Source: Pseudomonadota bacterium (GTDB taxonomy: Bacteria > Pseudomonadota > Gammaproteobacteria > Burkholderiales > Burkholderiaceae_D). From it: a DNA stretch of 64,000 nucleotides. The position numbers and the translations under genes were made by a program. Numbering within the stretch: the first letter of the stretch is position 1; every line of letters begins with the position of its first letter. Below, in pieces: positions 55,902 through 59,293 of this stretch. Location of the stretch: contig JBDKLM010000044.1 in the NCBI GenBank assembly GCA_039806005.1, positions 45,275 to 109,274 of the forward strand, read 5' to 3'. The notes beneath the pieces are model-generated. The model was not told where the DNA came from and made no database searches. It saw nothing but the letters and a program-made list of their open reading frames with translations.

Positions 55902-56657
55902 ATGACAATAAAAATTCATAGTGCAGACGGTGTCTTGACACTGTCCTTCGACCGACCCGAGAAAAAAAATGCGATTACCCGCGCGATGTATCAATCGCTG
56001 GGGGAAGGTTTGAAGACAGGGGGAGATGACTCATCCATTCGCGTCATTGTGATCACGGGTGAGGCGGGCACTTTCACTGCCGGTAACGATGTCGAAGATT
56101 TTCTGAAATATCCACCGCAACCCGGCGATTCTCAAGTCACGCAGTTCATGACCGAACTGCATCATGCCCAAAAGCCCGTGATCGCCGCTGTCAGTGGCAT
56201 GGCCATAGGGATAGGCACAACGCTGCTGATGCATTGCGATCTTGTGTACGCAGCAGACAATACGCGTTTCGCCATGCCCTTCACGCAGCTCGGCCTCTGT
56301 CCCGAATTTGCGTCGAGTTATTTGTTTCCGCGTTTGGCAGGTTATCAGCGCGCGGCAGAAAAACTGCTGCTGGGTGAGGCATTCACCGCCGAAGAGGCGT
56401 TGCAGATGGGGCTGGTCAGCAAAGTGGTAGCCGCAGATTCCCTTCAGACTTTTGTTGCCGCCCAGGCGGCGAAATTGGCGATGCTGCCCTCAGAGTCGTT
56501 GCGCATCACTAAACAACTCATGAAGAAAGATCTCGCATCCGGTGTGGACGCGGTCATTCAGGAAGAATTGCAGCATTTCATGCGACTACTGCAAGGCCCC
56601 GATGCCAAGGAAGCGTTTTCTGCGTTTCTCGAAAAGCGCAAGCCGGTGTTCAGCTAA
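55902..56657 (+). CDS. Enoyl-CoA hydratase/isomerase
   Basis: FTAGND, AIGIG, LGLCPEFAS and EKRKPVF. Confidence 0.9.
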   Translation: MTIKIHSADGVLTLSFDRPEKKNAITRAMYQSLGEGLKTGGDDSSIRVIVITGEAGTFTAGNDVEDFLKYPPQPGDSQVTQFMTELHHAQKPVIAAVSGMAIGIGTTLLMHCDLVYAADNTRFAMPFTQLGLCPEFASSYLFPRLAGYQRAAEKLLLGEAFTAEEALQMGLVSKVVAADSLQTFVAAQAAKLAMLPSESLRITKQLMKKDLASGVDAVIQEELQHFMRLLQGPDAKEAFSAFLEKRKPVFS

Positions 56658-56788
56658 GGAAGCGCTGATTAAATAAATGCAGAAGCTTTTGTGGCAAGAT
56701 CAATGGAGCCAAGACCTTGATTTGATTGATCCCAGCGTCGCACAGCTGCGCCGGCTCGCCATAAAACCCAGATTTATTCAGCATCTCC
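56658..56788. mobile_element. 131-bp MITE (IS5-like ends), copy 1
   Basis: Imperfect 17-bp TIRs GGAAGCGCTGATTAAAT / ATTTATTCAGCATCTCC; flanked by CTAA (56654-56657) and CTAA (56789-56792); second copy at 58866. Confidence 0.75.
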
Positions 56789-56860
56789 CTAATTTTGTGG
56801 CAAGGTAATCGTACCCAGCCCCTGATTCTTCTCTTCAAGGTCAGTAAGCCACCAAGGGAT

Positions 56861-56866
56861 TACAAT
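56861..56866 (+). promoter_or_regulatory. Putative -10 box of rnpB
   Basis: TACAAT ending 9 nt before the GAAGC 5' end of rnpB. Confidence 0.55.
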
Positions 56867-56875
56867 CGAGTCCGT

Positions 56876-57200
56876 GAAGCAGACCAGACAGTCGCTGGCA
56901 TGGGCAACTATGCGGGAGGAAGGTCCGGACTCCACAGAGCAGGGTGACGGCTAACGGCCGTCCGCCGTGAGGCGCGGAATAGGGCCACAGAGACGAGTCT
57001 TTGCAGCGCAAGCTGCAAAGGGTGAAACGCGGTAACCTCCACCTGGAGCAATCTCAAATAGGCACGCGACGATGCTGCTCGCTGAGCGTGCGGGTAGAGA
57101 GCTTGAGCGTCGGAGCAATCCGGCGCCTAGAGGAATGACTGTCATCGCTGTCGGGCTTGTCCGGCAGGGAAACAGAATCCGGCCTACCGGTCTGCTTCAC
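56876..57200 (+). ncRNA. rnpB: RNase P RNA, bacterial type A
   Basis: GAAGCAGACC/GGTCTGCTTC P1 helix; GAGGAAGGTCCGGACTC, GGGTGAAACGCGGTAACCTCC, AGAGGAATGA and ACAGAATCCGGCCTA conserved regions; T6 run after the 3' end. Confidence 0.96.
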
Positions 57201-57689
57201 TTTTTAAAGCGCTGCTGAGGAATCTGCATTTCAGCGCTTGCCTGTATCGACTCTTGCCACGTGCATTCCCGATGCACTATGGCTAGCCTTTCATCAGTGG
57301 GCTGCAGTGAGAGACCGATCCTTCAAAATCAGTGTGCCATGCGCGATGTGATGAGCTTTCATTGCGCAAATTTTCATACAAGTGTAATTACCTACTTCTT
57401 GCTGATTACTGATATCGGCACGTCGCGGTGCAGAGATTTTAATCGAGTGCTGTGTTAAGGGATTAATGCAAGCCCTGCTTCAAGAAGAGTCGCAGCGTCG
57501 AGCCAGGTAAAAATGCACGTCAAGGTTTTTCCAATACTCATAATGCCCTGCAGATTTTTAACAACAAATCGATGGGCTTTTTGGTCGTTGCGATCGAATG
57601 CCAGAAAACCTCCGAAGATTCCTAATCAAAAAAAGTCACTCATTGAAACGCCATTGCTTGGTGAATAAGTTCAAATTGAGGTGACAACA

Positions 57690-58865
57690 ATGAAGCCCAT
57701 TCGAGACATACCAAAAACGCCTGCCGAGACGATCGCAAACACAAGCGCAACACCTGATGGAAAGTCAAAAGACATTCAAAGCCATAAAGAAAAGCAAATT
57801 GACGCCGCCAGTACGACGGTCAAGCACCGAATACCCACCAATGCCACGAAGGACATAAAAACTCCGGTTAACGTAAATAATCTTTTTGATTCTGCATTCA
57901 TGACAACTGTTGTACTCAAGAATCCTAAAAGCTCAGCTGCCTCGGCGGGATCAACTAAACAAGTGTCTCAAGCCCAAAGCCACTTTCCTGCACACAGCGT
58001 GGCCACAGCAAACGCAGCAATGACGCCATCAAACACCGTGAATGCAAGCGTTTTCTCCGCTGTGTCTGCCAGGGCCATACCCGTCAACAGTCAGCAAAAA
58101 CCGATAAATAACTACAGTGCGCCGGTTACAACATTTGATATCAAAAACTTCCAGTTTGACTACGATAAACACGCAAAGACGGTAACACCCCAGGGACGCT
58201 TACTAGGCAGCGAATTCAATTTAAATGAAGACGAAATGGTGGCGATCAGCGCATACACACAAGATTGCTATAAGGCGATCAATTATCAATTGCGGAATTT
58301 GCCCGATCCCACGGTGAATATTTATGATGCCAAGGCATTGAAAGATTCAGGTGTCTCCGAAGATCTGGCATTTTTGATCGCCAATCTAGTGAATGGTTTG
58401 AAAAAACTACCACCTGCTTATAGAGACACCGGTTCTGGTGCACCAATCAATCGAGGTATCGGCCGAGATGTCAATCTGCCTGCGGAAGAACTCGCAAAAT
58501 TCCAAGAAGGAAAAATTGTGTCCAGTTCGATGCTGACTTCGACGACGAGTGCACTGGAACAGATGGTGGAGGGCCAATGGTGGTCAAATAATCCCCACTC
58601 GCTCATCATTCACCAACAGCTCAATGGTAATGGGCGCGATATTGCTGCTTTCAGCATGTACCCTCACGAAAGCGAGATTATTTTTTTGCCCGACACAAAA
58701 TTTAAAGTCACCTACAGAAAAGATGATACGGTCATGGGAGGTCCCGTTAACCGGGATAGTTTGCGGGGTAAAACCGAAGAAGAGATTCGGCAAGCCTATA
58801 ACGATCCCACCGGGCCAACCTACCAGAAGACGGTTATCACCTTGACAGAAATGCCCTCCGCCTGA
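57690..58865 (+). CDS. Putative secreted mono-ADP-ribosyltransferase (R-S-ExE, ARTC class) with disordered N-terminus, 391 aa
   Basis: AISAYT..CYKAIN.QLR, GLKKLPP, NRG (R255), STTS (S284), SMYPHESEIIFLPDTKFKV (E327-x-E329); ATG 57690 has SD GAGGTG (alternative GTG start at 57681). Confidence 0.85.
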   Translation: MKPIRDIPKTPAETIANTSATPDGKSKDIQSHKEKQIDAASTTVKHRIPTNATKDIKTPVNVNNLFDSAFMTTVVLKNPKSSAASAGSTKQVSQAQSHFPAHSVATANAAMTPSNTVNASVFSAVSARAIPVNSQQKPINNYSAPVTTFDIKNFQFDYDKHAKTVTPQGRLLGSEFNLNEDEMVAISAYTQDCYKAINYQLRNLPDPTVNIYDAKALKDSGVSEDLAFLIANLVNGLKKLPPAYRDTGSGAPINRGIGRDVNLPAEELAKFQEGKIVSSSMLTSTTSALEQMVEGQWWSNNPHSLIIHQQLNGNGRDIAAFSMYPHESEIIFLPDTKFKVTYRKDDTVMGGPVNRDSLRGKTEEEIRQAYNDPTGPTYQKTVITLTEMPSA

Positions 58866-58996
58866 GGAAGGGCTGATTAAATAAATGCGGAAACTTTTGT
58901 GGCAAGATCAATGGAGTCGGGACATTGATTTTATTGATCCCCGCGTCGCACAGCTGCGCCCGCTCGCCATAAAACGCAGATTTATTCAGCGTCTCC
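58866..58996. mobile_element. 131-bp MITE (IS5-like ends), copy 2
   Basis: TIRs GGAAGGGCTGATTAAAT / ATTTATTCAGCGTCTCC; flanked by CTGA and CTAA; 119/131 identical to copy 1 by hand alignment, no gaps. Confidence 0.75.
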
Positions 58997-59293
58997 CTAA
59001 CACGCAGAATCAGTGTCCGTTTGAAAATCGGCGTCCCAACCCTGGGCTCCATCCCCGTCGGACGAATCTGGCAGGGATGGCCGAGATGCCCATAGCTTCC
59101 TGATGTTCTTTCCATATTTTTAATCTTCTGGTTTGCCATGGGCAAACACATGTGTATTACTCAGGTTCTACTTTCACTTGTGCATCTAAGTCCTTCATTT
59201 CTCAAGGCTATTCTTCTTCAGCCTAATCTCAAGTAGTTGCGCTAAGTCCTTGACTTTATTGAAAAAAATCTCACTTCTAGTACGGGATATTCC

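Follow-up and report, generated by a model that had tools for sequence, protein, structure and literature searches.

Members of the IS5 group of insertion sequences (IS), including IS5 of E. coli, have ends reading GGAAG and GGAGA and duplicate a 4-bp Py-T-A-Pu target (PMC5493358). Among transposable elements of the miniature inverted-repeat type (MITEs), MITEAba12 of Acinetobacter is short (~113-131 bp), carries terminal inverted repeats (TIRs) that tie it to ISAba12, its parent IS in the same genome, has AT-rich duplications of a fixed length of 9 bp and contains stop codons near its ends (PMC6382973). The Correia elements (CREE) of the betaproteobacterium Neisseria are fold-back MITEs of ~100-150 bp, mostly intergenic and present in dozens to hundreds of copies, with 26-bp TIRs, a proven internal site for integration host factor (IHF), proven promoters and RNase III sites (PMC10969869). 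Finally, ERIC/IRU and other MITEs of 3′ untranslated regions, which insert near gene 3′ ends and can be co-transcribed as a hairpin, alter mRNA stability (PMC10969869). Here, we analyzed a 64,000-nt stretch of DNA from a bacterium of the Burkholderiales (contig JBDKLM010000044.1, positions 45,275 to 109,274; hereafter the window), in which two copies of a 131-bp element lie on either side of the RNase P RNA gene rnpB and an ADP-ribosyltransferase (ART) gene.

This element shares with the IS5 group its end sequences and its target duplication, and IS with near-identical TIRs are found in relatives of the same genus and order. It differs from them in its length of 131 bp, the lack of a transposase gene and an interior unrelated to that of the IS examined, and no such IS was found in its own assembly. 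It resembles MITEAba12 in its size, in TIRs tied to an IS, in the fixed length of its duplications and in the stop codons near its ends, but the duplications are 4-bp YTAR tetranucleotides and the parent is seen only in relatives. Correia elements are comparable in size, fold-back structure, mostly intergenic location and copy number, and Neisseria belongs to the same order as this genome in the GTDB classification. Correia elements differ in that they duplicate TA, have TIRs of another sequence and carry proven promoters and RNase III sites; their IHF site is represented here by an IHF-like sequence motif only. The likeness to ERIC/IRU lies in the position near gene 3′ ends; no sequence similarity to them was noted, and no search aimed at it was made. 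By comparison with these named systems, made without ISfinder, the element constitutes a new and genuine family of IS5-group MITEs, ordinary in kind.

Results

The element belongs to a dispersed family flanked by 4-bp duplications

The draft genome (2.85 Mb in 105 contigs, 55% GC) contained 33 full-length BLAST matches to the element, distributed over 29 contigs with 85-100% identity, together with about ten diverged or partial matches. Because one copy had been assembled twice, once where contig 43 ends and again where contig 104 begins, the 33 matches correspond to 32 distinct copies; its position at two contig ends indicates that these repeats break assemblies. Relative to the family consensus, individual copies show 1-15 base differences (mean 5%). 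When the copies were aligned together with 30 nt of flanking sequence, the similarity extended in every copy from GGAAGCGCTGA, with which the left TIR starts, to TCAGCGTCTCC, and the flanks were unrelated. The right TIR starts with GGAGACGCTGA.

The four bases outside each end followed the consensus C/T-T-A-A/G (CTAR/YTAR). The left and right tetramers were identical in 12 of the 32 copies and differed by one base in 15 (27/32 with at most one mismatch), and even the rare tetramers CTAC, CTAT, CGAA, CCAA and TTAA recurred on both sides of the same copy. This agreement was never reached in 10,000 trials in which the right flanks were shuffled among copies (permutation p<1e-4). The flanking tetramer is a true 4-bp target-site duplication and not part of the element sequence.

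A direct-repeat search of the window revealed a 139-nt repeat (56654-56792 and 58862-59000) with 91% identity. Its 131-bp cores, referred to as copy 1 and copy 2 (Table 1), point in the same direction and are distinguished by exactly 12 substitutions. The TIRs of each copy are imperfect, with 13 of 17 bases matched; in the family consensus 14 of 17 are matched, and the TIRs reach ~21 nt if a 2-nt gap is allowed. The open frames inside the element comprise only 37-62 codons, run through the repeat and contain no transposase gene, and no transposase was found on the window's contig. A first-pass annotation of the window, made from its sequence alone, had described two copies of equal length and orientation with 12 substitutions, had placed rnpB between them with no transposase in the window, and had proposed that they were MITEs. 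All of this was borne out by the repeat search, the core alignment and an Rfam match for rnpB, and the genome-wide search added many dispersed copies with sharp ends and matched duplications. With 32 dispersed copies, a local duplication is ruled out as the origin of the repeat.

Two variants of the element were observed. At C75:33557-33801, two tandem copies represent a second MITE subfamily, ~70% identical to the main one, with the same TIRs and conserved internal block (described below) and a different left half. A mini-element of ~52 bp at C43:14574-14625 consists of barely more than the left and right TIRs back to back, and such mini-elements also occur in relatives (L163, L176 and L180).

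IS5-type elements in relatives share the TIRs

Within its own genome, only two DDE_Tnp_1 genes were detected. Both belong to the IS1182 family (NCBIfam, 405 and 472 bits). Neither has ends related to those of the MITE, which rules these two elements out as its parent. Both genes are intact (C87:214-1644, L031, and C33, L032:754-2271), encode 476 and 505 aa and have their own inverted repeats of 32-43 nt.

In the same genus, we found an IS of 1216 bp (L048:1265-2480) that encodes a 333-aa transposase with a DUF772 domain (PF05598 search) and is flanked by a TTAG duplication. Its ends, GGAAATGCTGATTTATT and GGAGGCGCTGAACAAAT, match the MITE at 13 of 17 positions on the left and 15 of 17 on the right, and IS and MITE have in common the asymmetry of GGAA at the left and GGAG at the right end. 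Homologues of this transposase were present in 71 of 301 genomes sampled from the order, and plasmid-borne homologues with up to 73% identity are annotated as IS5 family transposases. Furthermore, several of these ~1.2-kb IS of the order (L086, L087, L088 and L092) have one end that departs from the left end of the MITE by at most 2 of 17 bases and are flanked by CTAG, TTAG, TTAA or CTAA. The transposases of these IS relatives measure 320-350 aa; DUF772 is shown for the 1216-bp IS, and the DDE domain rests on the IS5-family annotation of the homologues. The flank consensus and the shared TIRs thus agree with the initial assignment to the IS5 group with YTAR duplications. The outcome that the first-pass annotation had named as refuting it, two copies only and no IS with these TIRs, was contradicted by the many copies and by the IS that share the TIRs.

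Empty sites and divergence place both insertions after the split from the closest relative

We compared the rnpB locus (~3.3 kb) of 29 relatives from the genus. About ten of them (e.g. G071, G007, G066, G055 and G017) display the order hydratase - rnpB - mraZ - rsmH, the genes being separated by short spacers; the remaining loci had one flank beyond the ~3.3 kb or undetected. Wherever both flanks were within the locus (~10/29), rnpB and its surroundings (56839-57212) were syntenic between the hydratase gene and mraZ, and all 29 lacked a detectable MITE or ART gene at the rnpB locus. Four relatives (G071, G007, G066 and G055) revealed the empty site of copy 1, where the hydratase gene ends with G(C/T)TAA and homology to 56839 onward starts within ~13 nt. 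To the right of rnpB, homology with the relatives ends at ~57205-57212 and resumes at ~59108-59144, so that the extra 1.9 kb corresponds to the ART island and copy 2. Without the MITE, the island measures ~1.8 kb, and neither of its edges is a MITE end.

The empty site of copy 2 was provided by a metagenome contig of a close relative (L155), whose housekeeping genes diverge by 16-18% at four-fold sites. This contig has the order thiolase - hydratase - rnpB - ART - mraZ, with an ART gene 89% identical to that of the window and without copy 2. Its ART gene ends in CTGA and continues directly into the sequence that in the window follows the right CTAA of copy 2, which makes it a precise empty site. 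Since the relative has the ART gene without copy 2, the gene was resident before the two lineages split and copy 2 entered its stop codon afterwards, leaving the protein length unchanged (391 aa). Copies 1 and 2 diverge from the family consensus by 3.8% and 5.3% (Table 1). As ~8-9% would be expected for each lineage after the split, both copies are younger than the split. The preference of the first-pass annotation for independent insertions is borne out by these separate empty sites and by the duplication that copy 1 has of its own.

Just outside copy 1, the 12-mer at 56793-56804 opens a stretch of 46 nt with 70-76% similarity to positions 30-75 of the element. This stretch is missing in most relatives and is orthologous to part of a truncated old element in L155, where the hydratase stop is followed by a degenerate old left end (41 nt, 76% like copy 1) joined to the 46-nt orthologue. 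The two BLAST segments in L155 overlap by exactly the 12-mer. The earlier suggestion that this 12-mer is the scar of a previous event is supported by the element-like stretch and by the old element in L155.

Insertions at stop codons are about twice as frequent as expected

To evaluate the position of the copies relative to genes, we used approximate gene calls (longest non-overlapping open reading frames (ORFs) of at least 100 aa), which yielded 2506 genes and a coding fraction of 88.5%. With these crude calls, 15% of the YTAR sites harmless to genes coincide with a stop codon. Nine of the 32 copies exactly abut a stop codon, seven with their left side, including both window copies, and two with their right side; a tenth overlaps a stop codon by one base. 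The resulting ~2-fold enrichment (p = 0.04 for 9/32 and 0.016 for 10/32) is explained by a target that contains TAA or TAG and by the harmlessness of such insertions. Strong homing to stop codons is ruled out by an excess of only ~2-fold over the crude null.

In the window, the ORF of the enoyl-CoA hydratase (55887-56657; Pfam ECH_1, 186 bits) abuts copy 1 with a TAA that lies within CTAA, and the ART ORF (57681-58865, start at 57681 or 57690; Pfam ADPrib_exo_Tox, 28.6 bits) abuts copy 2 with a TGA that lies within CTGA. The stop codons are part of the target sites, as had been proposed. The description of the copies as fused to a stop codon is real for both, and the bias behind it across the genome is modest. 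The left end of the element contains stop codons in all three frames within 19 nt, as read from the consensus, and in three copies an ORF entering from the right stops at a TGA located 11 nt into the element.

Each strand of the MITE has one open frame, and the ATG at element position 21 starts a frame that exits through its right end, from which false ORFs arise. Three ORFs of the window (minus strand, 56650-56838 and 58837-59151; plus strand, 58885-59103; 62-104 codons) are likely of this kind. Four other copies contain the start that longest-ORF calling assigns to the downstream gene.

The fold-back structure is conserved only in the TIR stem

Folding of the plus strand gave a long, branched hairpin that combines the TIR stem, a TTTTGTGGC/GCCATAAAA stem and two inner hairpins, with energies of -38.7 and -49.6 kcal/mol and z-scores of -2.5 and -4.0. 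The minus-strand fold was no better than shuffled sequences. The fold-back stems listed in the first-pass annotation are present in the minimum-free-energy folds; the terminator or 3′ stabilizer role that it derived from them is unsupported. No terminator-like or promoter-like site was found in a scan of either copy, and the hairpin is not followed by a U-tract, the right end of each copy being followed by CTAA and then by unrelated sequence. A search of Rfam at E<=1 matched nothing but rnpB. A consensus fold of 21 elements from ~18 genomes kept only the TIR stem, with almost no compensatory change, which rules out a conserved RNA structure.

Thirty copies could be classified on both sides: nine lie between two gene starts, six between two gene ends and 15 between co-directional genes. 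The left end was within 50 nt of a gene 3′ end in 15 copies and the right end in eight; this difference is not significant, and an orientation bias relative to the upstream gene was rejected.

Two internal stretches are constant across species

The element was present in 13 of 24 genomes of the genus and was not found in the 16 other families of the order that were sampled. A left-TIR pattern matched 22 of 57 genus genomes, with 26 matches in this genome, 31 in G014 and 22 in G003, and its reversed control gave 0 matches. In a wider collection of genome contigs, a scan for the conserved block described below returned 32 loci, and an exact 36-nt pattern gave no match. One contig that carries the block (L121) is labelled as a metagenome-assembled genome of an uncultured Bifidobacterium sp. 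and is probably mis-binned.

Across species, the interior of the element turns over, with at least two subfamilies, and two stretches remain constant. One is a block of 33 nt at element positions 77-109 (CGCGTCGCACAGCTGCGCYGGCTCGCCATAAAA), which is as conserved across the genus as the TIRs. The other, YAANNNNTTGATW at positions 53-65, equals the IHF consensus WATCAANNNNTTR on the other strand. In 21 full-length elements chosen by their left TIR only, the mean column identity was 0.88 for positions 77-109 and 0.81 for positions 52-66, compared with 0.54-0.65 for the other interior and 0.82 for the right TIR. Among 30 TIR-selected elements, 20 carried the block at its fixed position within 4 mismatches and 11 had a strict match to the IHF consensus at the same position. 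The counterpart of this motif in copy 2 (58918-58930) is degenerate. The block was not found in the full-length IS relatives, which therefore give no support for a role in transposase binding.

Features of the locus

The coordinates of the two copies and of the surrounding features are given in Table 1.

Table 1. Features of the rnpB locus (window coordinates).
Feature	Position	Strand	Remarks
Left target-site duplication of copy 1 (CTAA)	56654-56657	+	56655-56657 is the TAA stop of the enoyl-CoA hydratase gene; empty site in relatives ...GCTAA/TC...
MITE copy 1	56658-56788	+	131 bp; 5 differences from the family consensus; TIRs 56658-56674 and 56772-56788
IHF-consensus-like motif in copy 1	56710-56722	-	Reads WATCAANNNNTTR on the minus strand; sequence match only
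Conserved internal block of copy 1	56734-56766	+	Element positions 77-109
Right target-site duplication of copy 1 (CTAA)	56789-56792	+	
Older-MITE remnant, degenerate	56793-56838	+	46 nt; resembles element positions 30-75
rnpB (RNase P RNA, class A)	56876-57202	+	Rfam RF00010, 246 bits; between the hydratase gene and mraZ
Low-GC lineage-specific island	57213-59141	+	In the rnpB-mraZ spacer; carries the ART ORF
Left target-site duplication of copy 2 (CTGA)	58862-58865	+	58863-58865 is the TGA stop of the ART gene; empty site in L155 CTGA/AGCGCTGG
MITE copy 2	58866-58996	+	131 bp; 7 differences from the consensus; TIRs 58866-58882 and 58980-58996; conserved block 58942-58974
Right target-site duplication of copy 2 (CTAA)	58997-59000	+	One mismatch to the left CTGA

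The ART island has a GC content of 42-49%, compared with 55% for the genome, and no repeats, TIRs or integrase were seen at its edges. The ART ORF begins with a low-complexity N-terminal region of ~170 aa, and its C-terminal domain contains candidate R, S-T-S and E-x-E motifs (NRGIGR, LTSTTS and HESEII). It differs from its counterpart in L155 at 10.7% of residues, compared with 3-4% for the neighbouring housekeeping genes, and homologues with 32-64% identity are present at other loci in 10 of 56 genomes of the genus. A hairpin right after rnpB (57206-57245; AAGCGCTG ... CAGCGCTT) has arms that resemble the GCGCTGA core of the MITE TIRs. It gave no match in a TIR search at <=5 mismatches, and could represent either the terminator of rnpB or a minute relic of a TIR.

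Discussion

We assign a probability of roughly 0.92 to the reading in which the element is an IS5-group MITE mobilised in trans and the two window copies are independent insertions into stop codons that took place after the split from the closest relative. The family, its boundaries, its duplications, its empty sites and the kinship of its TIRs with real IS5 elements were observed directly. Several points weigh against this reading. Searches of the draft assembly with Pfam models of other IS5-type domains and by tblastn with an IS5-type transposase revealed no IS5-group transposase; as no contig is shorter than 2.6 kb, an IS of 1.2 kb could be missing from the assembly. The similarity between the MITE and the IS ends at the TIRs, which is usual for MITEs; the element is thus not a simple deletion derivative of any IS examined, and an origin by deletion from an IS5 element of the genus is ruled out. 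Only 12 of the 32 duplications are perfect, and in three pairs a left CTGA faces a right CTAA, a mismatch that simple decay does not obviously predict. Finally, no transposition event was observed. The three mismatched copies lie on C44 (copy 2), C51 and C23; the reverse arrangement was never seen, and the empty site of copy 2 in L155 likewise reads CTGA.

We infer that a transposase acting in trans, which was not found in this assembly, would recognise the imperfect TIRs of ~17-21 bp and move the element by cut-and-paste chemistry, as known for other DDE transposases. A YTAR tetranucleotide in the target would be cut with a 4-nt stagger, and repair of the gaps would duplicate it on both sides. 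YTAR holds TAA or TAG on one or the other strand, so an insertion at a stop codon would regenerate the stop and leave the gene intact; such insertions would be tolerated and accumulate. In the window's lineage, the two copies inserted independently of each other and after the split from the closest sequenced relative, copy 1 at the hydratase stop codon, next to what remains of an older element, and copy 2 at that of an already resident, horizontally acquired ART gene.

The first-pass annotation had also raised the idea that the two copies bound a composite transposon that brought rnpB and the ART gene here as one 2.3-kb unit. The shared orientation of the copies and the CTAA at both outermost flanks would fit such a unit, but CTAA is merely the commonest target of the family and copy 1 has a perfect CTAA duplication of its own. 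Furthermore, rnpB is ancestral at this place, the extra DNA spans ~57213-59141 with edges away from the MITE ends, and L155, whose ART gene occupies this locus too, lacks copy 2 and has no more than a truncated old element where copy 1 lies; an ART gene without the repeats also counts against the composite by the annotation's own reasoning. We regard this origin as refuted for practical purposes. A host-selected RNA or DNA module, acting as a terminator, a 3′ mRNA stabilizer or a REP-like sequence whose function drives spread and conservation, has somewhat more to build on, namely the stability of the plus-strand hairpin, the 9-10 of 32 copies at stop codons, the 15 left ends compared with eight right ends near gene 3′ ends and the conservation of the internal block across species. 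It is nevertheless very improbable as the main explanation: the hairpin lacks a U-tract, a terminator- or promoter-like site and an Rfam match, the minus strand folds like shuffled sequence, only the TIR stem survives in the consensus fold, and two gene starts flank nine of the 30 classifiable copies, a setting in which a terminator would be without function. The duplications and empty sites, on the other hand, show transposition directly. We therefore view the element as a selfish, non-autonomous transposon; it may affect neighbouring genes, but the data give no indication of this.

More room is left for a functional module inside the MITE, consisting of the candidate IHF site at positions 53-65, the block at 77-109 or both, and serving transposition or co-opted by the host. 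This would add to the MITE reading rather than replace it. The block and the IHF-like stretch stand out from the rest of the interior in their column identity and recur at fixed positions (20/30 and 11/30 elements), and Correia elements offer a precedent with their proven IHF site (PMC10969869). The strict motif is missing in 19 of the 30 elements and in copy 2 of the window, and it was noticed after the fact. As the elements share ancestry, their conservation may be partly inherited; the block itself could be bound by a host factor or by the transposase, or reflect inherited similarity. On this basis, we consider an internal functional module unlikely, and still a little less likely the more specific proposal that block and motif together would form a dedicated protein-binding module, either for a host factor of transposition or as a regulatory site that the family has distributed over dozens of gene ends and promoters. 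This proposal builds on their constancy across species-level subfamilies and on their absence from the full-length IS relatives. For the sequence beside copy 1, we tend to favour an older element at the hydratase stop, followed in the window's lineage by the insertion of a young copy into the same site. The alternative is a loss of 106 nt in L155 by recombination between two 12-mers. Over the left 41 nt, the window differs from the consensus at one position and L155 at 10, which we take to favour the older element, even though we found no single simple event that yields the present structure.

The general understanding of transposons is unchanged by this case. It provides a well-bounded new MITE family for the poorly studied freshwater Oxalobacteraceae/Burkholderiaceae, which are known almost only from metagenome bins. 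In practice, the family explains assembly breaks and spurious ORFs, and its copies are usable as strain markers. The locus allows the events to be ordered, with the ART island arriving first and the MITE later, and illustrates how an element that targets YTAR can come to lie precisely at a stop codon with no harm to the gene. If the internal stretches were indeed a protein-binding module, the YTAR target would make this MITE family a vehicle that plants binding sites at stop codons.

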